From contig CAWGRW010000009.1 of NCBI GenBank assembly GCA_963825135.1, positions 1,792,001 to 1,856,000 on the forward strand: 64,000 nt of DNA, in the 5' to 3' direction. The stretch comes from an uncultured bacterium (GTDB lineage: Bacteria; Desulfobacterota_D; UBA1144; Nemesobacterales; UBA2774). The notes beneath the pieces are model-generated. The model did not search any database and was not told the DNA's origin. It saw nothing but the letters and a program-made list of their open reading frames with translations. Below are positions 1,079-21,462 of the stretch, one piece after another (position 1 is the stretch's first letter; the number at the start of each line of letters is the position of its first letter). Both the position numbers and the translations under genes were made by a program.

Positions 1079-2341
1079 TTAGCCCTCGAGGAGGAGCGAT
1101 TCCGGGTCCTCAATCAGCTCTTTAACCCTCACGAGGAACTGGACGGCTTCGCGCCCGTCGACAATTCTGTGGTCATAGCTCAGAGCGACGTACATCATGG
1201 GACGAATCACCACCGCCCCGCTGACGGCGACGGCCCTGTCCTCGATCTTGTGAAGTCCGAGAATCCCCGATTGCGGCGGGTTGAGTATGGGGGTGCTCAT
1301 AAGCGAGCCGAATACCCCGCCGTTTGTTATCGTAAAGGTGCCTCCCATAATCTCGTTCAGTGTAAGCGTGTTGTCCTCGGCCCTCAGCGCGTAGTCCTTG
1401 ATCGATTTCTCTATTACGGCAAACGACATACTGTCTGCATTTCTAAGCACCGGGACTACCAGTCCTTCTGTCGCCCCTATGGCTACCCCTATATCGTAGT
1501 AGTGCTTAATGATCATTTCGTCGCCGTCGATCTCCCCGTTTACCTGCGGGAATTCCTTAAGGGCCCCAATGGCGGCTTTAACGAAAAACGAATTTAACCC
1601 CAGGCCGACCCCGTATTTTTCCTTGAAGGACTCCTTCCTGCGCTTGCGGAGCTCCATGACCGCGCCCATGTCGATCTCGTTGAAGGTCGTGAGCATAGCC
1701 GTCGACTGGGTAGCCTCAAGCATACGGCGTGCTATAGTCCGTCTCCTCCGTGACATCTTGATCCGCTCCTCCCTAGCGTCCCGTGAAATGCGGAGCACCG
1801 TCGCTTCTTTCGCTTCGACCAACGCGGGAGATTTGCTCTTGAGAGGCTCTACCCTGGGTATTTCGGCATGAGCGGGCTCTTCGGCTGTTTTCTCGATATG
1901 TATTTCGACGTCTTCTTTTGTAATACGGCCGCTGGGCCCGGTGCCCTCGACATTGTCGAGATCGACCCCTTTTTCTTCTGCAATCCGTCTCGCTACCGGG
2001 GTCACTCTTTCCTCTGCGGGCTCGGGTCCTTTTATTTTTTCTTCTTTCGCCTCCGCCGGCGCTTGTTTCGGGCCTTCCTTCGGTCTGGCCGGTTCCTCGG
2101 TCTTGCCTTCTTCTATCACACAGAGAACATCCCCGACCTCGACGTCCTCACCGTCCTTTTTCCTGATGCTGCCCAGTATCCCTTCCTTCTCCGCCGCGAC
2201 CTCGAAATTCGCTTTTTCCGTCTCGAGCTCTACAAGCGGCTCCCCGATCTTCACCGGGTCTCCTTCCGACTTGAACCATCTAACGACAGTTGCTTCTACG
2301 ACGGATTCTCCCAATTCGGGCACGGTTACGTTAATTGACAT
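1079..2341 (-). CDS. sucB: 2-oxoglutarate dehydrogenase E2, dihydrolipoyl succinyltransferase
   Basis: N-terminal lipoyl domain (PELGESV..ETEKA), E3-binding domain ([12 protein letters not shown]), catalytic YDHRIVDG; directly downstream of sucA. Confidence 0.95.
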
Positions 2342-2357
2342 GATATTTCTCCGGTGT

Positions 2358-5171
2358 TTAGACGTTTTTTACCCATGTAATACCTAATTCGTCGATATTG
2401 GGAAGCACTTTGCCGAGCAGGAATGCCTGCCTGATGAGCGCTTCCTGGTTCACCTTGTGCATCGAAGCGGTTCCTTCGGCCGGGCTCGAATTCCGGCGCC
2501 TTCCCATGTAGTGAAGTGCGACGCGTCCCTTTATCAGTTTCCTCAGGAACGGGTATATGAACATCCAGGCCCCCATGTTTTCGGGTTCTTCCTGGAGCCA
2601 GATTACTTCCTTGAGCTTGGGATACCTGTTCAATACTTTCTGGAGCAGCGTCGTCGGGACCGGATACAGCTGTTCGAGCCTCGCGATTGCAACATCCCTG
2701 GAACCTTTTTTTCTTAACTCGCTGGCTATGAGGTCTATATACACTTTACCGCTGCAGAGGATCAGCCTCTTGACTGATTTCGCCTGACTGTCGTTCATTC
2801 CGTCATCGATTACTGGCTGCCACGTCCCCTCCGCGAGGTCCCTTAATGAAGAGAAAACAAGCGGGTTCCGGAGAAGGCTTTTGGGCGTCATTATTATTAG
2901 AGGCAGCGGGTCGATATCGAGCACGCCGGCCTGTCTTCTCAGGAGATGGAAATACTGTGCGGAGGTGGTACAGTTCGCAATTCTCATGTTCACTTCCCCC
3001 GCGGAATCCAGAAACCTTCCCAGCCGGCCGCTCGAATGGTCCGGGCCCTGGCCTTCATAAGCGTGCGGAAGGAGCAGGACGAGAGAAGGCGTCTGTCCCC
3101 ATTTCGCCCTGGCCGATACGACGTATTCATCGATTATCGTCTGCGCGCCGTTGATAAAATCCCCATACTGCGCTTCCCAAATGACCAAACGGTCGGGCGC
3201 CTGAATGTTATATCCGTATTCGAACCCGATGCAGGCGTTTTCCGTAAGCGGGCTGTTCAAAATTTCAAAAGATGCTTTTGACTGAGGCAGTTCCTGTAAC
3301 GGCGTGTATATCCTGCCGGTATTGAAATCATGAAGAACCGCGTGCCTGTGGCTGAATGTACCGCGCTCGGCGTCCTGTCCCGTGAAGCGTATGGACGTTC
3401 CATCGGCGAGTATTGACGCAAATGCTAAATCTTCGGCCATACCCCAGTCTATTGTCCTCTCGTCTATGTTGGAGAGAGCTTGCTCCTTCCGTTCCCTCCC
3501 CCGTTTCAGCTTGGGGTTGATCGTGAACCACTCGGGGAGCTTCAGGAGAGAAGCATTCAGTTCTCTCAGTGCTTCTGCCGGGACGGAGGTTAGGGTTTTT
3601 TGAGCTGCCCCTGCGGGCGGTCTTTCGGAAAGGGATTCTTCCGGTATGTCCTGAGGGGTCAGGGATTCGAAGTCTTTGTGAAGAATTTCGTTGTACTTGT
3701 TTACCAAGTCATCGGCTTCGTCCTTATCTATAATATTCCGTTTTACCAGTGTGCCCGCCCAAATTTCCCTCACGGTCGGGTGGTCGTCAATTATCTTGTA
3801 CATATCGGGCTGTGTGAAAGCGGGCTCGTCCGCTTCGTTGTGGCCGTGTCGTCTGTAACCTACAAGATCTATCAGGAAATCCTTACCGAACCTCCTCAGG
3901 TAAGCGATTGCGAGCCGCGCGCATTCGATGCACGCCTCGGGGTCGTCGGCGTTAACATGGACTATCGGGATCTCGAACCCCTTGGCGAGATCGCTTGCAT
4001 AGAGCGTACTGCGGCTCTCGCTTGGTAAGGCCGTGTAACCGAGCTGGTTGTTGGTAATAACGTGAATTGTACCGCCCGTATTGTAACCTGGCAGCCTGCA
4101 CATGTTGAGGGTTTCGGAAACAATGCCCTGGCCCGGAAAAGCCGCGTCGCCGTGTACGATGATCGGAAGCGACACCCCCTGGTCGAATTTCGGCGCTCCG
4201 CCGTTATTGACCGCTGTGCCCGCGGCGCGCGCCATACCCTCTACGACCGGATTCACCGATTCGAGGTGGCTGGGGTTCGGGGCCAGCGTGATCTGCATCT
4301 CTATCGCTCTTCCGTTTTTTATTGCGTAGCGCGCGCCCTCGTGGTATTTAACATCGCCGGTCCAGCCCATGTAATCCCTGAAATCCCTTTCCAGTATAGG
4401 GTCCTTGAATTTAATTAACGTCCCCTTGTATGTCTTCGTCATTACATGATGCATGACGTTCAAGCGGCCCCTGTGGGCCATGCCCATAAAAATATTGTTT
4501 ATGCCTTCCTCAGCCGCTATGCCCACGATCTCATTTAAAACGGGGACGAGCATGTCCACGCCTTCGATTGAAAAGCGGAACTTGCCGGGGAATATGCGAT
4601 GGAGGAATTTCTCCAGCACCTCTACTTTGGTAAGGCTTTCGAGGAGCAGCTTTTCGTTAATCGGGTCCGTAGGGGGCCTGAAACTGCCTGTTTCGGCGGC
4701 TTCCCGGAGCCATTTCCTCTCTTCGAGCGAGTTAATATGATAATAATCGTAGCCCACCCTGGAAGAGTAGATCTTACGGAGTTCCTGTATCCCGTCATAG
4801 GCGTTGGCCGTCTTCTCGGATACGGGCTTGCCCACCAGACTCGACGGCAGCTGGACGAGGTCTTCCGGGGTCAGGCCGTGGGTCGAGAGTTCGAGAGACG
4901 GGTCCCCGGGGGGATTACTGCCAAGTGGGTCTAAATCGGCGTCGAGATGGCCGAAGGCACGGATCGCCTGAGCGAGGTTTGCCGTTGCAACTATTTTATC
5001 AATTTCGAGCTGGGTAATCTCGGAGGGACTCTCTTCGTAAATCTCCGGATGCATCTTGTCGAATACAGCTCTTGTGGCTGAATCGACCGAGCCCGGATCC
5101 TTGAGATAACGCTCATATAGCTCAAGAACATAACCTGAATTAGGTCCGTGAAAAATATGCGAAATATCCAT
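2358..5171 (-). CDS. sucA: 2-oxoglutarate dehydrogenase E1
   Basis: [24 protein letters not shown] motif [33 protein letters not shown]. Confidence 0.97.
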
Positions 5172-5436: not shown

Positions 5437-6315
5437 CTATCCCGTGTACGAATTGATGAACTTCTCGTAATGGGCCCTGTGGTCCTGGCGTCCGATTTGC
5501 TGCTGAGCGGGCGGAAGCTCGGTCTTATTCAGGATAATCGATTCGAGGGAAGCGTGCTCTCCCTTGAATATTCTCCCGATCGGAATCTTCCCCTCCTCTT
5601 TCAGCTGGAGCGATCTCTGGAAGGCCATCCCGCGGTTAGTCGGGTCATAACCTTCTTCCTCGTCTATATTATAGACCCTGGCTCTCCATTCCCGGTGAGT
5701 ATCATAGTACGTTACGCATGGGGAAAGCACTTCGAGGAAAGCGAACCCCTTCTTGGACTGGGTATGATCGAGAGCCGCTTCCATCAGTTTCTCCAGCTGC
5801 TCGGGGTTGCCGCTGAAACCCCGCGCCAGGAATGTAGCCGACGGGAAGCTTAGGCCTAGCAGGATCGAATCCAGACCGGATTCGGCGTTGTCACGATAAC
5901 CGGTAGGGCTGGTTGGGGATATCTGACCTTTCGTCAGACCGTAATTGCTGTTGTTCATTACAATATAGGTAATGCTAGGGTTGCTCTTGAAGGTATGTAC
6001 GAGGTGGCCCGCTCCTATGGCATAGCCGTCGCCGTCCCCTCCCGCCGCGATTACGGTCAGGTCGGGGTTGGCCAGCTTGGCTCCTATTGCGGCGGGCAGT
6101 ACCCTCCCGTGCAGCGCGTGGTATCCGAAGCAGGGCAGGTTGTTTTGTATCGTTCCCGAGCACCCGATTCCGGCCAGCATCATAAGCTTGTACGGAGGTA
6201 TGCCCATCTTGTTCAAGGCCTTTTCAAGGACGCCCTGTACTGCGAAGTCTCCGCATCCGGCGCACCATATCGGTCTTGCCGGCGTAAAGGTTTTTGTACG
6301 GGTTTCTGTCGTCAC
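5437..6315 (-). CDS. korB: 2-oxoacid:ferredoxin oxidoreductase beta subunit (KorB-like)
   Basis: WCAGCG, GIGCSG, HGR, TPP motif GGDGD..NN..YGLTKGQISPT, SPC. GTG start overlaps the korA stop (GTGA), with GGAGG upstream. Confidence 0.9.
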   Translation of the reverse strand: MTTETRTKTFTPARPIWCAGCGDFAVQGVLEKALNKMGIPPYKLMMLAGIGCSGTIQNNLPCFGYHALHGRVLPAAIGAKLANPDLTVIAAGGDGDGYAIGAGHLVHTFKSNPSITYIVMNNSNYGLTKGQISPTSPTGYRDNAESGLDSILLGLSFPSATFLARGFSGNPEQLEKLMEAALDHTQSKKGFAFLEVLSPCVTYYDTHREWRARVYNIDEEEGYDPTNRGMAFQRSLQLKEEGKIPIGRIFKGEHASLESIILNKTELPPAQQQIGRQDHRAHYEKFINSYTG

Positions 6316-8114
6316 TGTAGCTTAGCCTCCTTTTTTCTCTTCTTTACTACGCTGCTTTCCCCTTCGAGGACCCTTCTTACCAGATCCACCGGCCTGAAAG
6401 GAATTCCGTCGTATCTCAAAATATTATTTATTTTATCCGGGTCCGCTCCCTGGTGAATCAGTATATGCGCCAGCTGGCCCTGCGCATTGAGCTCGACCAC
6501 ATAGACCCTGGTGCATTTGTCGATAAAGCCGAGTATGTCGTCAAGCACCGGCCAAATGGTTCTGGGCTGTAAATATCGGGTCTTGATGCCTTCTTTTTTC
6601 AGGTCTTCCATCGCATCTTGTATGACCCCGAATAAAGATCCGATCCCGATGAAACCGATCTTGGCGCTCGGGTCGCCGAAATGACGGGCCCCGGGCAATT
6701 CGTTTTTCGCGCCTTCGATCTTCCCCATACGCTTATCCATCATTTTTACGCGGTTTGTCGGGTCGGTGGAAACGAGTCCCCATTCATTATGCTCGTTCCC
6801 CGTGACCAGCGATAACCCTCCGGGCGTACCGGGCGCGGCGAACGGCGATATATTGTCATCCGTGAATTCGTATCGTTTGTAGAATCCGAGCTTTTCAATT
6901 TCTGCCGCTTCGACCCGCTTGCCCGGAACCGCGCTTACTCCGTCGAGGTCAAACGGTTTGACTGTCGCGACGTTCTGAGACAGCGCCTGGTCCATCGCCA
7001 GGAAAACAGGGCATTGATATTTATCCGCCAGGTTCGTGGCCTCCGCAGCCAGGTAAAAGCAGTCATCGGGGTGTCCCGGGGTAAGGACTATTCGCGGAAA
7101 GTCCCCGTGACCCCCGAAGACCATCAGGTTCAGGTCGCTCTGCTCGGGCTTAGTCGGCATACCCGTGCTCGGTCCCGAACGCTGACAGTCGACTATCACT
7201 AGCGGTATTTCTCCCGAACCGCAGTGCCCGACTCCCTCCTGCATCAGAGAGAAGCCGGGACCGGACGTGGCTACCATAGCCCTTGTTCCGGTGAGCGCCG
7301 CTCCGATAGCCATGTTAATTCCGGCCAGCTCGTCCTCGGTCTGTCTGGCGACTCCTCCACACCTCGGGAGCCACTTCTGGAGCGTCTCCAGTATCTCTGA
7401 AGAAGGGGTTATGGGGTAGCCGCAAAAGAACCTGCCCCCCGCAACCATGAATCCGAATGAGACCGATTCGTTGCCGGTGATCAAAAGGCGCGGCTCGGGT
7501 GTTGTCTTGTTTATTTTATATAGTCCTTCTCCTTCGTGTATGCCCATCTCGTCAGCGAGATGGAAGCCCAGGGCGAGCGCCTCGAGGTTGTATTCGAGAA
7601 TAACCTGTCCCATTCTCTGAAAGTGATTAACGAATGTCTCGCGCAGGGTTTCGTCTTCGAGGCCGAGCAGTCTCCCCACGACACCGAAAGCAATACTGTT
7701 CTTGTAGAGCTCTCTCCTCATCGTACGCATGGCTATCCTGTTGAACGGCGCGGAATATACCTTCGTGTCCTTAGGAAGAACGGACGGTACGGGGCCTCCG
7801 GAGTCGTCGTAGACCACTATGCTGTTCGAATCGAGCTGCCGCGCGTTTTTTTCAACGGCCTCTTCGTCCAGCGCGACCAGGAGGTTTATGTTGCTTCCTA
7901 TACAGTACCTCTCGCTGGCGGACGCCCTCATAGTCGCCGCCGCGTGTCCTCCCCTGATTCTCGATAAAACGTCTCTTTCCGTGTAAACGTTGAGCCCGTT
8001 CATACGAAGCATCTCTGCCAGCATCGTAATAACGGTTAGCGAACCATCCCCTCCCTGGCCCGCTACTATAACATTTACGTCCTCTAAAATAGGCCGGCTG
8101 TTGCTGGAACTCAT
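6312..8114 (-). CDS. korA: 2-oxoacid:ferredoxin oxidoreductase alpha subunit (gamma-alpha fusion, KorA-like)
   Basis: N-terminal gamma domain (AGQGGDG..SRIRGG), GNE, YPITPSS, EDE, TSGPGFSLM, QRSGPSTGMPT. Substrate specificity is not determined from sequence. Confidence 0.9.
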   Translation of the reverse strand: MSSSNSRPILEDVNVIVAGQGGDGSLTVITMLAEMLRMNGLNVYTERDVLSRIRGGHAAATMRASASERYCIGSNINLLVALDEEAVEKNARQLDSNSIVVYDDSGGPVPSVLPKDTKVYSAPFNRIAMRTMRRELYKNSIAFGVVGRLLGLEDETLRETFVNHFQRMGQVILEYNLEALALGFHLADEMGIHEGEGLYKINKTTPEPRLLITGNESVSFGFMVAGGRFFCGYPITPSSEILETLQKWLPRCGGVARQTEDELAGINMAIGAALTGTRAMVATSGPGFSLMQEGVGHCGSGEIPLVIVDCQRSGPSTGMPTKPEQSDLNLMVFGGHGDFPRIVLTPGHPDDCFYLAAEATNLADKYQCPVFLAMDQALSQNVATVKPFDLDGVSAVPGKRVEAAEIEKLGFYKRYEFTDDNISPFAAPGTPGGLSLVTGNEHNEWGLVSTDPTNRVKMMDKRMGKIEGAKNELPGARHFGDPSAKIGFIGIGSLFGVIQDAMEDLKKEGIKTRYLQPRTIWPVLDDILGFIDKCTRVYVVELNAQGQLAHILIHQGADPDKINNILRYDGIPFRPVDLVRRVLEGESSVVKKRKKEAKLQ

Positions 8115-9391
8115 GTGGATGCTTTACCTCCGTTCGTGGGGTTATAGTCCTTATAGAGAGTCTTCGGATTGGTGTTTCCCATCTCGATTCTTTCCTGCAG
8201 CGTCGGCATCAGTGCCGGCAGGGGCTTATTTCTCTTCATGTTGCAAAGCCTTATTAAAAGATCCTTTGCCCGCGGTTCCGATTCGACCGGCACGATCTCG
8301 AACAGCCCGTCGTCGACCGCCGCCTGAAATGCCTTGTGTCCCGCCTCGGTCCTGACGGCGACGAAGGTCCACCCGTCGAGGCCTATTCCTCCGACCCCGA
8401 TGTCGGCGTGTTCCGCGGAGTAATCGAGGCAGTATAGGCATGCTGGCCGTGCGAACTGGTGAAAATCCTTTAATTTCATAATGATCTCTCGCCCGTCTCT
8501 GAGATTTATTATTACCTTTCCCTTTACATTCACATTCACTATGTCTATAGGCTCGACGTTAAGGGTCTCGGCTATGAATTTTATATGTTCGTGGGTGAAG
8601 CTCTCCGAGCAGAAAAGCCCTATTACGAGCGTTACGTTCTTCTGATACCACTTCGCCACTTCCAGACGGATGCTGCTGTACTGCTGCTGTCTGATACCGT
8701 CTACCTGGCACGGAACGCCCACAACGGCGATAGGATGTATGTCTTTTCTCATCGCCTCCGTGAGTGCGACGGTATTTGGCGAATAGGTATATCGGGAGCC
8801 GCTGCAGGAAATGATTTCCTCGGGCGTGGTAGCAAGCTTCTGAACGCCAATCTGAGGGTTTTCGGGCAGCACGTCGCCAAGCACGGCTCCCTTTATCGTC
8901 CCTTTTTTCAATGCATGTACCAGGAGCGCACTAGTAACCCCTCCGTCCTGTCCCCGTTTCAGAAGCTCGGTGTCTTTTGCCCTCGCAATCACGGCATAAT
9001 TATACGATCCGAATCCCTCGTCCAGCACAGGCTTTTTGAATCCGAGAAGCGTGTTAAGGTCTTTGTCCAGAGGACGCAGTACCGGGCATACGTCCGCGCA
9101 AAGCTCGCAGAACACGCAGGCGTCGTTTCTGGTGTCGACAGGGTGTTCGTCTTTATAGTCGAAAACGTCCGTAGGGCAGATCGTTACGCACGCCGCGCAG
9201 CCTACGCATTTGCCCGTGTCCACTATCTCGCGCATCAAGAAATCGACCGCCTTAAACCCTCCGCGGTTGATTTCCGATCTCCAGGCATAGGCCCACTCGA
9301 ACGGATCCACTCCCTCCTCCAGCATATGGTGGTATCGCTCCTGAACCGCTCGTACCAGCTTCTCATCTCTGCTGAATTCTTCATTGCTCAT
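8111..9391 (-). CDS. Ferredoxin-domain FrhB/FdhB-family flavo-iron-sulfur protein (FpoF/FqoF-like architecture)
   Basis: Two 4Fe-4S motifs (CVGCAACVTICP, CVFCELCADVCP), then FrhB motifs GQDGGVTSALL, GSRY, VGVPCQ, IGLFC, ACLYCLDY, ADIGVGG. ATG 9391 preferred because GTG 9400 overlaps the GGGAG RBS. Stop overlaps the korA start (ATGA). Confidence 0.88.
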   Translation of the reverse strand: MSNEEFSRDEKLVRAVQERYHHMLEEGVDPFEWAYAWRSEINRGGFKAVDFLMREIVDTGKCVGCAACVTICPTDVFDYKDEHPVDTRNDACVFCELCADVCPVLRPLDKDLNTLLGFKKPVLDEGFGSYNYAVIARAKDTELLKRGQDGGVTSALLVHALKKGTIKGAVLGDVLPENPQIGVQKLATTPEEIISCSGSRYTYSPNTVALTEAMRKDIHPIAVVGVPCQVDGIRQQQYSSIRLEVAKWYQKNVTLVIGLFCSESFTHEHIKFIAETLNVEPIDIVNVNVKGKVIINLRDGREIIMKLKDFHQFARPACLYCLDYSAEHADIGVGGIGLDGWTFVAVRTEAGHKAFQAAVDDGLFEIVPVESEPRAKDLLIRLCNMKRNKPLPALMPTLQERIEMGNTNPKTLYKDYNPTNGGKAST

Positions 9392-9770
9392 AATCGACAC
9401 TCCCTGTTAGATTATTTAGCAGAATTATCATGTATAGTTATTGTTAAATATTATATTCGGCTGTACTGATCCTATCACATTTTTTCTTAGCTTTAATGAT
9501 GCTGCGAGAACGCCGTTCTTAATAAAAAACTGATACATATTCTTAAATGATTCCTGTCACTTTACCCTTAATTCTTATAGTATATCAGTTTATTAGCATA
9601 GTAAATATACTTAGTCAATGTATAAATCAACCCGATCGATCTATGACCGGCAACCCCGTATTTCCTCCTTATTGGCAAATTGTTTGGAATAGAATTGCCT
9701 GGCGGTTATTCTATTCCCTGAAGTCGACCCCAAAAGACAAAAGGGATCCTGATCCGGGGACTGTTTTAAC

Positions 9771-15937: not shown

Positions 15938-17428
15938 ATGACTGTCAATCAGCTTGCCGCCCCGGCAGCCGTCCGTAACTATATCAGAAGCAATCTTCCG
16001 CTATTATTGATTTTCTTGCTTGGATTGTTCCTGAGGATTTATCATCTCGGCACCGAGAGCATGTGGCTTGACGAGATCTACTCGGTTGACATGTCCCGTC
16101 TCGGCCCAATAAGCATCGTAAAAGAAATACTACGCCAGGGTGAAAGTTCTCCCCCTTTATATTATGCGCTTCTCCATTACTGGGTAATTGTTTTTGGTGA
16201 CTCTGAATTCGCTTCGAGATTGTTCTCGGTCATACCGGGGTCACTTTCGGTGCTTCTGATATATAAATTCAGCAAGGAGCTTTTTAACAGGAACGCCGGC
16301 TTGATGGCTGCGTTAATTATGGCCGTCTCGGTTTACCAAATCAAATACTCCCAGGAAGCGCGGACCTATTCGCTAATCGTTTTCCTGATGCTGCTCAGTA
16401 ATTATTTGTTCCTGAGATTATTAAGCGGTTATAGATTCAAATACGCTCTGGGTTATATCTTCGTCACCGCGGCCCTCATATACGCTCACTATTACTCGGT
16501 GTTTTATGTTGCGGCTCAGAATATTTATATGTTCACGAAGCTGATCCTGAACCCGAGGGGGGAATGGCCGGCATTTAAGCGGTGGATAGCATTGCAACTT
16601 ATGCTTTTTGTAGTTTTGCTGCCGGAGCTAATGCTGTTAAGAAGGGCGGACGCAATACACGAAGGATTCTGGCGCGCAAGACCGAGTATACACACTGTCA
16701 TATACACTATTGTGCAGTTCTCCGGTTCTCTCCCGCTCCTGATTCTCTTTTTCGTACTGTCTGTGTATACGGTGGTAAGCGCAATCAGGGCCGATTATAA
16801 AAATACGCTCGCAGAGCCCGTTGGCCGCACAGGCGGCCCTACCAAAGACTCGCCTTTTTCCAATAAAATAGACAGGATTTACTTTTTGATCGTTCTGCTA
16901 TTCGCCCCTATTATACTTGCCTATATCGTTTCCATGATTTTTAACCCGATTTTTGGCGACCGCTATTTAATTGGTGCTTCCCCAGCCCTGTATATTCTGG
17001 TCGCGGCGGGGATCGACAATCTGGGGTTCAGGAAGCTTAAAGTTCTTGCCGTTGTTTTAGTGGTATGTCTCTCCCTTTTCCGAATTTATCGATATTATCT
17101 AACCGTCGATAAGCATCAGTGGAGGGAGGCAGTCCATTATATAGAGGAGAATGCATCCCCCGGAGATATGGTTATGGTTTCCCCGGATTTCGAGCTGATC
17201 TCTCTGGAATATTATTTAAAAAGAAATGATCTCAAGGCAGTTGCGTTGTCCGAGCAATCTAGTCTCGATTTCGGTCTGAAAAGCGGGAAGGTCTGGGTTG
17301 TCTGCCCTTATCACGGTGGTCAGGATGCTCCGGTAGACGAGGACAGCCTAAAACAATATAATAAGCTCCTCTCCGAAAAAGATTTTAACAAAATAAAGGT
17401 ATATCTTTTGACCGGGAAATCTGATTAA
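15938..17428 (+). CDS. GT-C superfamily (PMT/GT39/GT83-like) membrane glycosyltransferase, paralog 1
   Basis: ESMWLDE, PPLYY, GDSEFASR, YSQEARTYSL, HYY, many TM segments, C-terminal KHQWREA domain. Confidence 0.85.
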   Translation: MTVNQLAAPAAVRNYIRSNLPLLLIFLLGLFLRIYHLGTESMWLDEIYSVDMSRLGPISIVKEILRQGESSPPLYYALLHYWVIVFGDSEFASRLFSVIPGSLSVLLIYKFSKELFNRNAGLMAALIMAVSVYQIKYSQEARTYSLIVFLMLLSNYLFLRLLSGYRFKYALGYIFVTAALIYAHYYSVFYVAAQNIYMFTKLILNPRGEWPAFKRWIALQLMLFVVLLPELMLLRRADAIHEGFWRARPSIHTVIYTIVQFSGSLPLLILFFVLSVYTVVSAIRADYKNTLAEPVGRTGGPTKDSPFSNKIDRIYFLIVLLFAPIILAYIVSMIFNPIFGDRYLIGASPALYILVAAGIDNLGFRKLKVLAVVLVVCLSLFRIYRYYLTVDKHQWREAVHYIEENASPGDMVMVSPDFELISLEYYLKRNDLKAVALSEQSSLDFGLKSGKVWVVCPYHGGQDAPVDEDSLKQYNKLLSEKDFNKIKVYLLTGKSD

Positions 17429-17545
17429 AATCGGGAATCTCTCGGATCGGGATGAGTGCTCGCCTAATGCGCGGCGTTCTAAATTTATGCATATGGGATA
17501 AATATAAAGATGGCCGCGGTTCGAAAGGCCGGACTCTAACGAATA

Positions 17546-19042
17546 ATGAAAATACAGCCACTGGATGGGCCGGTTTCCGGTTTCATAAGAAATAATCCTC
17601 TTTTATTTGTGATATTTCTTCTGGGTTTGTTTCTCAGGCTTTATAATCTCGGCGCTGAAAGCGTATGGTTCGATGAAGCGGTTTCTATCGCGGCGGCGAA
17701 GCTCGGGTTTCTCGATCAGATAAGATGGAGCTTAGCCGAGAGTGATAAGAATCCCCCTTTTTACTATGCCTTTCTCCGCGTATGGGTTCTCATGTTCGGC
17801 GACTCCGAATTCTCCGTCAGGCTCCCCTCGGCTATTTTCGGTTCGTGCAGCATACTGTTTATTTACAAAGTCGTCAGGCTGCTCTACACCAGAAAGGCGG
17901 CCTTGCTCGCGGCGCTCGTCCTTGCCGTTTCCGTATTTCACATCCGGTTCTCTCAGGAAGGAAGGGCGTATAGTCTATCGGCACTTCTCACTCTCCTTTC
18001 CTTTTATTTCTTTTTAAAGAGCGCCTCAGAGAGAAAGCGGATCAATTCAATAGGATATGTCATATCGAGCGCGCTCTTGATTTACACCCACTATTACGGC
18101 CTTTTCATTATCCTTTCTCAAAACATCTTCTGCGCGTGGCAATATTTAGCGCGCCGGGAATCCGTAGTGCCCGACTTTAAAAAATGGATGGCTCTTCAGT
18201 TTATTCTTGGGATTTTGTATATCCCGGGACTATATATCTTGTATCGGCATTCGATCGGAATTCAAAAAGGGTTCTGGCTCTCCCCTCCCACTTTAAAGGT
18301 CTTATACGACTGCTTCGTGTTGTATTCGGGATCGACGTATCTGCTGATATTGCTCGCCGCGCTCTCAATATTGGCCTTTGTCAATATCAGGGGGGCGAGC
18401 ATCTCCGGGTATTTTAGAGGGGTCTCCGAAGCCTCGGCTCACAAACCGGAGGAAAGCGGCGCATCATATGGAAGAAGCGTGATTCTCCTCCTTCTATGGT
18501 TGATAGTTCCACTGGCCGTGCCTTTCCTGATATCGCTTGTTTCGACTCCGATTTTTTTCTACAGATACACGATCGTCGGGTCTCTCGCATTCTATATCCT
18601 CGCTTCAGTCGGGACGGTAAGGACGGGCGGCAAGAGGTTCCTTCTTCTCGCTGCGGGATTAGTTCTAATTTTTTCTTCCGTTAATATTTTCGGATATTAT
18701 GAACTGGTGGATAAGCCCGACTGGAGGTCCGGCATAGGCTATATCGAATCCAGGGCCGGCGCAGGAGATGTTATAGTTTCATACCCATGGTACGAAACGG
18801 AAGCGGCCGGTTACTATGCGGCACGAGGCGATTTGGCGATAATACCGCTCACGGACGAATTTTACTCCCCCGCCGATACGGGGGACAATGAATTCTGGCT
18901 CGTATTGTGCGACCGCTGGAAGGACGACGTAGGAAACAATAAGGGGATTATCGAAAAGAGAATCGGGGAGAGCTACGACGTTCTGGAGATGAAAGAATTC
19001 CCGTACCTCTACATCTATCGTCTCAGGTATAAAAAAGAATGA
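17546..19042 (+). CDS. GT-C superfamily membrane glycosyltransferase, paralog 2
   Basis: ESVWFDE, NPPFYY, GDSEFSVR, FSQEGRAYSL, THYYG, KPDWR. Confidence 0.85.
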   Translation: MKIQPLDGPVSGFIRNNPLLFVIFLLGLFLRLYNLGAESVWFDEAVSIAAAKLGFLDQIRWSLAESDKNPPFYYAFLRVWVLMFGDSEFSVRLPSAIFGSCSILFIYKVVRLLYTRKAALLAALVLAVSVFHIRFSQEGRAYSLSALLTLLSFYFFLKSASERKRINSIGYVISSALLIYTHYYGLFIILSQNIFCAWQYLARRESVVPDFKKWMALQFILGILYIPGLYILYRHSIGIQKGFWLSPPTLKVLYDCFVLYSGSTYLLILLAALSILAFVNIRGASISGYFRGVSEASAHKPEESGASYGRSVILLLLWLIVPLAVPFLISLVSTPIFFYRYTIVGSLAFYILASVGTVRTGGKRFLLLAAGLVLIFSSVNIFGYYELVDKPDWRSGIGYIESRAGAGDVIVSYPWYETEAAGYYAARGDLAIIPLTDEFYSPADTGDNEFWLVLCDRWKDDVGNNKGIIEKRIGESYDVLEMKEFPYLYIYRLRYKKE

Positions 19043-19089
19043 ATAGACGGGCGTGAAAATACATTTTATTTCCAGAGGGTGATCGGTTT

Positions 19090-19986
19090 ATGGCAAACGA
19101 AATTAAGTTCAGGTCGGGTTTCATAACGGTAGTCGGACGGCCCAACGTGGGTAAGTCGACACTGATTAACGCGGTTACGGGCATGAAAATAGCGGCCGTA
19201 TCTGATAAGCCCAATACGACGAGGAATAGAATACTCGGAATCAAGACGCTCCCGGACGCGCAACTCGTATTTATCGATACCCCGGGAATACATAAAGCCA
19301 GGGGAAAACTGGGCAAGGCAATGGTTCATACCGCAATGGCTGCGATCGAAGAAGCGGACGTGATTTTGATGATGATCGAAGTCAAGGAACCTTTCGGGAG
19401 AGGGGATCGCTTCATCATCGAGAATCTCCCGAAACCCTCCATCCTGATTCTAAATAAGATCGATACCGTAAATAAAAGCGAGATACTGGGAATAATCGAC
19501 GAATCGAGGAGATTTGAAGGAAAATTCCTTGAGGTTATCCCCATTTCGGCGAGAAATTCGGACGGCATCGACGATCTCTTGGCGACGATTGTAAAATACA
19601 TGCCCGAGGGGCCTAAATATTTCCCCGAAGATATGGTAACGGACCAGCCCGAAAGGTTTCTGGCCGCGGAGTTTATCAGGGAGAAGATTTTCCAATTAAC
19701 GAAACAGGAGATACCTTACAAAACCGCTGTAGTTATCGAGGAATTTAAAGACGAGCCCGAGAAGGGACTCGTCCGGATATCGGCCGTTATATATGTCGAG
19801 AGGAACAACCATAAGGGGATCATCATTGGAAAGAAGGGAGAGATGCTGAAGGAGATAGGCAGCCTTGCGCGCGGGGACATGGAAAGAGTGCTCGGGGCGA
19901 GGGTCTTCCTCGAGCTCTGGGTGAAGGTAAGTGAAGGATGGACGGAAAGGGAGAACCTGATTAAGGATTACGGATACGGCGTCTGA
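19090..19986 (+). CDS. era: GTPase Era
   Basis: GRPNVGKST, NTTR, DTPG, NKID, KH domain IIIGKKG, VFLELWVKV. Confidence 0.97.
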   Translation: MANEIKFRSGFITVVGRPNVGKSTLINAVTGMKIAAVSDKPNTTRNRILGIKTLPDAQLVFIDTPGIHKARGKLGKAMVHTAMAAIEEADVILMMIEVKEPFGRGDRFIIENLPKPSILILNKIDTVNKSEILGIIDESRRFEGKFLEVIPISARNSDGIDDLLATIVKYMPEGPKYFPEDMVTDQPERFLAAEFIREKIFQLTKQEIPYKTAVVIEEFKDEPEKGLVRISAVIYVERNNHKGIIIGKKGEMLKEIGSLARGDMERVLGARVFLELWVKVSEGWTERENLIKDYGYGV

Positions 19987-19989
19987 TAC

Positions 19990-21462
19990 ATGAAGAAAGA
20001 ATCGGTTCTCGGAGTTCTCAAAGAAAATTATTTAATAATCCTGATTTGTATTCTTGGCGTCATACCAAGGTTTTACGCTCTCGGCAAGGAGAGTATATGG
20101 TATGACGAAGCAGTCTCGATCGTTGCCTCCAAGATGGGATTTGCGGATATCATTGCATGGATATACAAGGATGCCGCGGAGGCAAACCCGCCATTTTATT
20201 ATCTGTTGATGAGTGTATGGATACCCGTTTTCGGTGATACCGAATTCATTACGCGGGTGCCCGCGGCTGTTTTCGGCTCATTTTCTGTCTTCGCTATATA
20301 CGCTGTCGGCAAGCTCCTCTATGATAAAAAGACGGGGCTTATAGCTGCACTCATTCTTGCAGTTTCCGTCTTTCACATCAGATACGCGCAGGAAGTCAGG
20401 GGATATACCCTGATGGTTTTCCTCATACTCGTTTCGTTCTACTCTTTTCTGCAGCTTTCGATTAAAAGGAGAACGTTATATGAAATTACCTATATAGCTT
20501 CGACAGTTCTCCTGGTCTGCACGCATTATTACGGAGTCTTGATTGTCCTGTCTCAAAACATCTTCTGTTTTACTTTGATTCTGAAGAATAAGAGGATCGG
20601 GGAGCTCGGCATCGGCGGGTGGCTAAAACTCCAGTTGATATCCGGCATATTGCTTCTGCCCTGCATATTTCTTCTTGCCGTTACAATATTCAGGATACGG
20701 AAGGGATTCTGGATCGCCGAGCCGACGTCTGAATATATATGGCAATATTTCGAGATCTATTCCGGATCGATCTATCTCTTAATTCTATTTCTGGGATTTT
20801 CGTTGTATGCGGTATACGGCGCTAGAAAAGTTAAAGGCAGAAAACAAAGGAGTAAGTCCGGAACATTCAACGAAGAGCGCCCGGACGCGCCCGGGATATC
20901 GGGAAGGGAGAAAATCTATTTGCTCCTTTTGTGGCTGCTCGTGCCCGTCCTAATTCCGTTTTTGATCTCCTTTGTTTTTACACCGATACTCGTATTCCGC
21001 TATACTATCGGGGCTTCGCTCGCCTTTTATCTGCTGGTGTCCAAAGGGATCGGGAATTTGAATAACAAGTGGCTGATTCTGGCTGCGGCGGGACTCATCG
21101 TCATCTTATCTTGTGTCAAGATAGGCGCCTATTATAAAGTCGTCGGCAAGCATCAGTGGAGAGAGGTGATGAGCTATATAGAATCCAAAGCGCTGCCCGG
21201 TGACGTAATAATTGTTTCGCCCATATATGAGAGGATTACCGCCAGGTACTATAAGAAGAGGAATGATATACAACTACTTCCGCTCGAGAAGAAATTCCCT
21301 GTATTCAAGGATTTGGGGAATGGAAACATTTGGTTTGTTTTTCACGCCCATCCTGATAGCCGGGCCAATTCCAGGGCGGGGCTCGGCGGAAGGTATGACA
21401 TTACCGAGAAGCACTATTACAAGCTCGATTTGTTCCAGCTAAGGGAAAAACGAACGAATTAA
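19990..21462 (+). CDS. GT-C superfamily membrane glycosyltransferase, paralog 3
   Basis: ESIWYDE, NPPFYY, GDTEFITR, YAQEVRGYTL, THYYG, KHQWRE. Confidence 0.85.
   Translation: MKKESVLGVLKENYLIILICILGVIPRFYALGKESIWYDEAVSIVASKMGFADIIAWIYKDAAEANPPFYYLLMSVWIPVFGDTEFITRVPAAVFGSFSVFAIYAVGKLLYDKKTGLIAALILAVSVFHIRYAQEVRGYTLMVFLILVSFYSFLQLSIKRRTLYEITYIASTVLLVCTHYYGVLIVLSQNIFCFTLILKNKRIGELGIGGWLKLQLISGILLLPCIFLLAVTIFRIRKGFWIAEPTSEYIWQYFEIYSGSIYLLILFLGFSLYAVYGARKVKGRKQRSKSGTFNEERPDAPGISGREKIYLLLLWLLVPVLIPFLISFVFTPILVFRYTIGASLAFYLLVSKGIGNLNNKWLILAAAGLIVILSCVKIGAYYKVVGKHQWREVMSYIESKALPGDVIIVSPIYERITARYYKKRNDIQLLPLEKKFPVFKDLGNGNIWFVFHAHPDSRANSRAGLGGRYDITEKHYYKLDLFQLREKRTN

Follow-up and report, generated by a model that had tools for sequence, protein, structure and literature searches.

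A block of three overlapping genes in a 64,000-nucleotide stretch of DNA from an uncultured bacterium (contig CAWGRW010000009.1, positions 1,792,001 to 1,856,000, henceforth referred to as the window) probably encodes a single 2-oxoacid:F420 oxidoreductase, in which a KorAB-type enzyme would oxidize a small keto acid, pyruvate for instance, with a ferredoxin-FrhB flavoprotein reducing F420. The three genes, henceforth referred to as the triad, are likely a bacterial route for loading F420, because they travel together in many uncultured bacteria that make F420 and because the flavoprotein is shaped like archaeal F420-reducing modules. From this evidence we infer the complex, its electron path, acceptor, direction and substrate. 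All three genes lie on the minus strand. The ferredoxin-FrhB fusion gene occupies 9391-8111 and encodes 426 residues from an ATG start, with an in-frame GTG at 9400 that would add three more. It is followed by a korA-type gene for the alpha subunit (8114-6312, 600 residues, a fusion of domains III-I-II) and a korB-type gene for the beta subunit (6315-5437, 292 residues). The first-pass annotation had described three genes joined by 4-nt overlaps, with no KorD, hydrogenase or formate dehydrogenase gene in the block. All three open reading frames (ORFs) were read in the sequence, as were both stop/start overlaps, ATGA at 8111-8114 (frhB-like gene and korA) and GTGA at 6312-6315 (korA and korB), and none of the additional genes was evident among the flanking ORFs. 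Each gene of the triad was found in one copy by BLAST against the genome's own ORFs.

Every ferredoxin and FrhB motif previously named for the first protein is present. Pfam models Fer4, FrhB_FdhB_N (PF04422) and FrhB_FdhB_C (PF04432) all scored over cut-off on the 426-residue fusion protein; the ferredoxin motifs are C62-C65-C68-C72-P73 and C92-C95-C98-C102-P103, and the FrhB-part motifs are Q148DGG, G225VPCQ, G258LFC, C318xxC321xD323 and A329DIGVG. The protein is predicted to be an F420-reductase subunit, and three [4Fe-4S] clusters and FAD are expected. Its FrhB domain (residues 126-388; 8228-9016, minus strand, as for all segments given here) contains the FAD loops QDGG, GSRY and FCSE and the cluster ligands C228, C261, C318 and C321, assigned by alignment to M. 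marburgensis FrhB, for which the FAD loops are given as 23-30, 71-77 and 131-138 (PMC3930138). The preceding 2x[4Fe-4S] ferredoxin domain (residues 51-106, 9074-9241), with its two CxxCxxCxxxCP motifs, is the most conserved segment, with 29/56 columns invariant among 34 sequences, a figure inflated by the cysteines. It is acidic in 34/34 aligned sequences, with a net charge of -3 to -9. A clade-specific N-terminal extension (residues 8-50, 9242-9370; 14/43 columns invariant in 34 relatives) is helical in the structure model, and the profile covering it matches only this clade and a few sister clusters; it is a candidate docking element. The C-terminal tail (residues 389-414, 8150-8227) is also conserved, with 8/26 columns invariant.

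The structure model was built from a 146-sequence alignment and reached a predicted local distance difference test score (pLDDT) of 94.2 and a predicted template-modelling score (pTM) of 0.93; an earlier model from 34 close relatives only (pLDDT 67.9) was not used. The top fold match was 8RIU_B (Z 43.8, root-mean-square deviation (rmsd) 3.0, 353 residues aligned), and the structural alignment extends through the C-terminal tail to the last residues of the fusion protein and of this zeta subunit, which has its dimerisation extension there (PMC11493965). The second match was 8RJA_E (Z 38.7, rmsd 2.3, 331 aligned), followed by Fsr (Z 36), FrhB (32-35), HCAR (27.4) and FdhB (26.4). The protein falls below the curated cut-offs of both FrhB (TIGR03289, 188 against 331.5 bits; the block has no hydrogenase genes) and FpoF (NF040616, 137 against 475 bits), and no NAD-binding domain was detected in it by Pfam. 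A role as an FpoF-type input module, which serves a complex I without NuoEFG, was rejected on the FpoF score and because a gene scoring over the PF01512 (NuoF) cut-off is present in the genome. A FastTree tree of 87 rows, built without any labelled FrhB6 sequence, groups the fusion-protein family in a single clade of 29 rows with support of 100. Its sisters are five proteins (P0123-P0126 and P0131), two of them in clusters named Thaumarchaeota and Caldiarchaeum; the N-terminal extension is present and the C-terminal tail absent in these sister proteins.

The two Kor proteins have the features of a two-subunit 2-oxoacid:ferredoxin oxidoreductase (OFOR). KorA has the III-I-II domain order with YPITP and the arginine (R312) intact, passes TIGR03710 (598 bits, cut-off 483) and has 6N2N_A as its best PDB match. 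KorB, best matched by 5B46_B, has the GDG thiamine diphosphate motif and four cluster cysteines (C18, C21, C52 and C200); it passes TPP_enzyme_C and PFO_beta_C and is below the TIGR02177 cut-off (230 bits, cut-off 262).

The substrate pocket points away from 2-oxoglutarate. KorB T55 aligns with K49 of the Sulfolobus enzyme (StOFOR) and R63 of the Magnetococcus enzyme, and the basic residue of 2-oxoglutarate-using OFORs at this position was not found in the close KorB family, where the residue is threonine (52) or serine (20) in 72/72 close KorBs and threonine or serine in 18/18 more. Ordinary korB genes of other Dadabacteria (n = 3) encode arginine there. The position of Magnetococcus R63 comes from the alignment, and the residue presumably serves in 2-oxoglutarate use. 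KorA N440 aligns with Sulfolobus D468 and is asparagine in 37/37 sequences. In StOFOR1, the K49I and D468A substitutions each abolish 2-oxoglutarate activity with retention of pyruvate activity (PMC5020499), and the family-wide changes of K49 to threonine or serine and of D468 to asparagine therefore make pyruvate-like substrates likelier than 2-oxoglutarate. This argument is weakened by KorAB of H. thermophilus, which has no K49 position and is yet specific for 2-oxoglutarate (PMC5020499).

On balance, pyruvate or 2-oxobutyrate has about an even chance of being the substrate, another neutral or polar 2-oxoacid is possible at lower probability, and 2-oxoglutarate is doubtful. Residues Q57 and N58 of KorB, invariant in 41/41 sequences, may define another substrate. 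Of the earlier KorAB label, membership in the 2-oxoacid oxidoreductase family stands, while the pocket residues T55 and N440 speak against 2-oxoglutarate use. The genome encodes an AceE-type pyruvate dehydrogenase (PDH), and its sole E1_dh-family gene is sucA; since no branched-chain 2-oxoacid dehydrogenase of the E1_dh family was found in the genome, branched-chain 2-oxoacids stay candidates. The triad as sole oxidizer of pyruvate or 2-oxoglutarate was rejected, because PDH and 2-oxoglutarate dehydrogenase are both encoded.

In the proposed mechanism, KorAB would decarboxylate the 2-oxoacid on thiamine diphosphate to yield acyl-CoA, as its intact motifs suggest. Single electrons would pass to the KorB [4Fe-4S] cluster, whose ligands are present in the sequence. 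The third subunit would place its acidic ferredoxin domain in the pocket between domains III and VI, replacing a free ferredoxin. The electrons would reach FAD through the two clusters of this domain and then that of FrhB, a path modeled on the zeta and FwdI structures. Fold and gene context suggest that FAD would then deliver a hydride to F420. The F420H2 product could supply the many luciferase-like F420 enzymes, or yield NADPH via Fno.

Pyruvate oxidation by F420 is worth about -31 kJ/mol at potentials of -500 and -340 mV (PMC9012536), and the enzyme would therefore run one-way. Operation in reverse, with F420H2 driving reductive carboxylation of acyl-CoA or reducing ferredoxin, would be uphill by ~31 kJ/mol at these potentials, and the block has no bifurcating partner. 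This direction is suggested by the closest solved alpha subunit, that of the CO2-fixing Magnetococcus 2-oxoglutarate:ferredoxin oxidoreductase (OGOR; 6N2N), and by old reports of F420-linked pyruvate and 2-oxoglutarate synthases tabulated in PMC3012119, but such early activities, pyruvate synthase among them, were later traced to ferredoxin according to Chadwick et al. 2022 (PMC9012536). Reverse operation is accordingly considered highly improbable.

The linkage of the three genes is far beyond chance. In the genome loci, korA follows the frhB-like gene in 26/26 and korB follows in 25/25 with room. Among metagenome loci (here and below, the best 80 of 234 confirmed loci, partly redundant), korA follows in 55/56 and korB in 44/44 with room, the single korA exception (L090) having 407 bases of room. 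Presence and absence also coincide. Within 120 genomes of the phylum, 42 have a match to the FrhB-like protein, 28 of them close (at least 79%, one a fragment) and 14 distant (33-36%); the close KorB type (at least 69%) occurs in 27, all of which (27/27) also have the close FrhB-like gene, and both are absent from 7/7 genomes of one genus (g5) of the same family. The gammaproteobacterial order of genome G026 (81 genomes) contains 33 genomes with the close FrhB-like gene, 33 with a close KorB (set here at at least 48%, the next value being 44%) and 32 with both; the two exceptions, G174 and G213, have contigs that break off within korA. The triad was in order in 18/18 loci fetched from the 33 carriers of that order, two with a split gene. 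Record names place further members in Acidimicrobiia, Gammaproteobacteria (Arenicellales) and Alphaproteobacteria (Rhodospirillales), and, from an incomplete record name, in Bipolaricaulota. Conservation of the linkage, a check proposed in the first-pass annotation, was thus borne out across phyla, with the frhB-like gene and its KorB co-present or co-absent in two lineages. Over 65 loci, the three proteins have correlated pairwise identities (0.92-0.95), which were not counted as evidence, because shared ancestry alone gives this result.

Samples of 301 class and 401 phylum genomes around G026 gave no carrier of the FrhB-like gene other than the centre genome itself. Plasmid records gave 8 matches, all haloarchaeal at 27-29% identity, and none of this clade, and no cultured carrier was seen among the matches listed. 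Split korA or korB frames occur in several loci (L147, L053, L067, L102, L112, L121 and L161) and, like the in-frame stops of G199 described below, reflect either decay or assembly error. Several gammaproteobacterial genomes have a divergent TetR-family regulator gene upstream of the triad (L144:5494-6078, L147:11184-11816 and L149:4800-5369, two of them Pfam-checked). Two loci contain an FrhB-like paralogue of ~480 residues without korAB (L158:6078-7520 and L159:6036-7466), adjoining a gene whose product has a twin-arginine-like leader.

The same linkage bears on whether a stable complex is formed at all. KorAB might instead reduce free ferredoxin, and the FrhB-like protein would then serve as a soluble ferredoxin:F420 oxidoreductase, an activity that FpoF has in soluble form in Methanosarcina mazei (PMC9012536). 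A stand-alone ferredoxin is indeed encoded elsewhere in the genome (C9:211291-210947), and a second FrhB-like clade in other Dadabacteria is encoded either immediately behind cofH or close to a korDABC of four subunits that has its own ferredoxin. Against such a loose arrangement, the overlapping genes are gained and lost as a unit, the ferredoxin domain in the fusion shares the acidity of a free ferredoxin and is better conserved than any other part of the protein, and no ferredoxin gene recurs as a neighbour among ORFs of at least 80 residues, a limit that small ferredoxins could escape. Separate soluble proteins therefore appear rather unlikely.

The second FrhB-like clade (~32% identity) was observed in Dadabacteria families f2 and f3, where it is the last gene of an F420 run after cofE-cofG-cofH (L032:7420-12937, L033:3752-8207, L037:3374-8843 and L040:2504-8343, with cofD in 3/4). 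At L035:7636-13234 it follows korD-korA-korB-korC-gltA (citrate synthase), it lies near korDABC in L036 and L039, and it is also listed at L038; the KorBs of these kor loci keep the basic residue. In this clade an FrhB module may have been paired with a 2-oxoglutarate enzyme independently of the triad.

Triad carriers sit in F420-rich lineages. The source genome has a complete F420 pathway located away from the triad, with cofC, cofD, cofE, cofG and cofH all over NCBIfam cut-offs, so the biosynthesis genes whose search had been proposed earlier were all found. It also encodes Fno and 13 luciferase-like proteins, 4 over an F420-specific cut-off; none of the 13 matched an Fgd model at E 1e-35 (genome 94% complete). 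The cofG gene is over cut-off in 23/26 genomes behind the genome loci and is present in 118/120 genomes of the phylum. In the gammaproteobacterial order, cofG occurs in 77/81 and cofE in 75/81 genomes, and 32/33 carriers have at least one of them. An even sample of the class had cofE in 14/300 scored genomes, and the centre genome was the sole one there with the FrhB-like gene. Family f9 (G127-G145, Dadabacteria genomes of 0.8-1.1 Mb) has cofG in 19/19 genomes, but none of these yielded an FrhB-like gene.

The joining of the triad into F420 operons is stronger evidence than co-occurrence. F420 biosynthesis genes were found in the same locus in 26/80 metagenome loci, often adjoining the triad; this corresponds to 26/69 distant loci, and to 12/25 distant loci of at least 10 kb. 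The cof genes vary in order and are either divergent or on the same strand further downstream. Locus L074 contains the run F420-type luciferase-like monooxygenase (LLM) gene, frhB-like gene, korA, korB, cofE, cofD, cofC and fbiC, in which the korB stop directly precedes the cofE start, cofD, cofC and fbiC follow with overlaps, and all five flanking F420 genes are over cut-offs. In another locus (L108:13778-16795), CofC is fused to FbiC (CofG-CofH) in a single frame of 1005 residues downstream of the triad.

This context also informs the identity of the hydride acceptor, which in a real complex could be NAD(P)+, FO or, as for HCAR and BciB, an organic compound. Such an acceptor would fit the scores below the FrhB and FpoF cut-offs, the fold shared with HCAR, and two incomplete carriers in which no F420 gene was found. 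HCAR is not known to use F420. On the other side stand the repeated joining into F420 biosynthesis operons in several arrangements, nearest structures that are F420 reductases, the lack of a Pfam NAD-binding domain, and the restriction of carriers to F420-rich lineages within the samples searched. An acceptor other than F420 is thus quite improbable. The two incomplete carriers are G203 (1.3 Mb), in which cofG, cofE, cofD and cofC were not found, and G015, in which cofG, cofD and cofC were not found and cofE was not searched for. The G015 triad, on a 5-kb contig, is 81% identical to the window; its bin bears the title Gammaproteobacteria, where other family members stand at ~63%, which suggests that the contig is misbinned. 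The expected co-occurrence of triad and F420 synthesis was upheld by the many relatives with triads joined to F420 genes and left incomplete by these two carriers.

Several observations weigh against the 2-oxoacid:F420 oxidoreductase proposed here. In addition to these two carriers, the free ferredoxin gene and the HCAR fold, almost every genome of both carrier lineages has F420 genes, so co-occurrence within a lineage is a weak test, and most F420 makers have no triad. No cof gene was found within the fetched triad flanks in the window, in the 26 genome loci or in the 18 loci of the gammaproteobacterial order. One genome (G199, contig C201) has in-frame stops in two triad genes. The route is also not obviously needed, because Fno, PDH and 2-oxoglutarate dehydrogenase are already encoded by the source genome.

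The flanking ORFs of the triad are ABC-transporter-like genes, labelled from reading the sequence only, and sucAB. The latter genes (sucA-sucB, 1079-5171, minus strand, scores over cut-off) encode E1 and E2 of the NAD-linked 2-oxoglutarate dehydrogenase and provide context outside the enzyme; they start 265 bases downstream of the triad on the same strand. They follow the triad in most Dadabacteria loci and in none of the distant or gammaproteobacterial-order loci fetched; a functional tie was rejected because the neighbourhood is not kept outside Dadabacteria. A weakly supported sigma-70-like site (9450-9478, minus strand, 10/12 matches) lies upstream of the first gene; promoter and terminator scans gave no excess over shuffles (10 sigma-70-like sites against 6.3 +/- 2.7). 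Of the closest sequence records (93-96% identity), several bear the title Ca. Dadabacteria and others are titled Thermodesulfobacteriota or unclassified. These bacteria are presumably aerobes. Elsewhere in the window (15938-21462), three similar membrane proteins of ~490 residues read as glycosyltransferase-like, two of their genes being in tandem and one following an era-like gene.

The operon offers a concrete, expressible three-gene candidate for F420 use or recharge in bacteria outside Actinobacteria, for which a 2021 review reports no experimental study of the role of F420 (PMC8498797). FrhB-fold F420 enzymes are treated as exclusively archaeal in a 2021 classification (PMC8518648), and neither F420 nor FrhB is mentioned in the main text of a 2026 review of pyruvate:ferredoxin oxidoreductases (PFORs; PMC13768988). 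A more tentative extension, held with less than even confidence, is that the triad represents a widespread dedicated complex and the first bacterial FrhB-fold F420 enzyme, serving uncultured bacteria of sea and soil that lack Fgd as a main source of F420H2, tying carbon breakdown irreversibly to the F420 pool, and possibly having a new specificity through its T-x-Q-N pocket. If the proposed enzyme is real, the plug-in F420-reductase principle, shown for CO and formylmethanofuran dehydrogenases, would also hold for 2-oxoacid oxidoreductases and in bacteria. Such an enzyme would by analogy settle the ANME-1 proposal of 2022 and would make a near-irreversible F420H2 regeneration system available for biocatalysis.

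That proposal is the closest precedent in concept. Chadwick et al. 2022 described FrhB6 of ANME-1 in PFOR gene clusters and proposed that pyruvate is linked to F420 by a dedicated route working only in the oxidative direction (PMC9012536). What the two systems share is that a paralogue of FrhB is encoded in one cluster with a 2-oxoacid oxidoreductase, and the role is proposed in both cases. The hosts there are anaerobic archaea and the partner is a PFOR, whereas here they are bacteria with a two-subunit III-I-II enzyme, and the triad has a fixed overlapping order and is frequently joined to F420 biosynthesis genes. The first-pass statement that no characterized bacterial complex of this form is known agrees with the literature searched, in which no description of the bacterial, two-subunit-OFOR form was found (subscription journals being largely outside its coverage), but the concept had already been put forward for ANME-1 (PMC9012536).

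Structurally, the closest systems are the CO dehydrogenase zeta subunit (8RIU) and FwdI (8RJA) of Ca. Ethanoperedens thermophilum, which combine ferredoxin and F420-reductase domains, dock via the ferredoxin domain and give their enzymes F420 reduction (Lemaire et al. 2024, PMC11493965). The fusion protein shares with them an N-terminal 2x[4Fe-4S] domain and an F420-reductase domain in one fold (Z 43.8 and 38.7), and the triad likewise encodes it in the operon of the oxidizing enzyme. It differs in its catalytic partner, its 26-30% identity and its extra N-terminal helices, and complex and activity were demonstrated for the archaeal proteins, whereas the present protein is known from genes and predicted fold. 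FpoF/FqoF and FrhB have the same FAD loops and cluster ligands, and a ferredoxin fusion is also seen in FpoF; the protein described here misses their curated cut-offs, has no adjoining hydrogenase or Fpo genes and comes from a genome with its own NuoF-family gene. KorAB resembles Magnetococcus OGOR (6N2N) and Sulfolobus tokodaii StOFOR1/2 (5B46, 5B48) in domains III-I-II plus VI, YPITP, the arginine, the four cluster cysteines and the lack of an internal ferredoxin domain. Two-subunit OFORs have no domain V and present an open pocket between domains III and VI in which ferredoxin has been modelled (PMC5020499). The triad differs from these enzymes in its fixed third gene, in threonine or serine for K49/R63 and asparagine for D468, and in the invariant Q57-N58 pair. 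The system is most likely a bacterial variant of a principle that has been shown for two archaeal enzymes and proposed for an archaeal PFOR.

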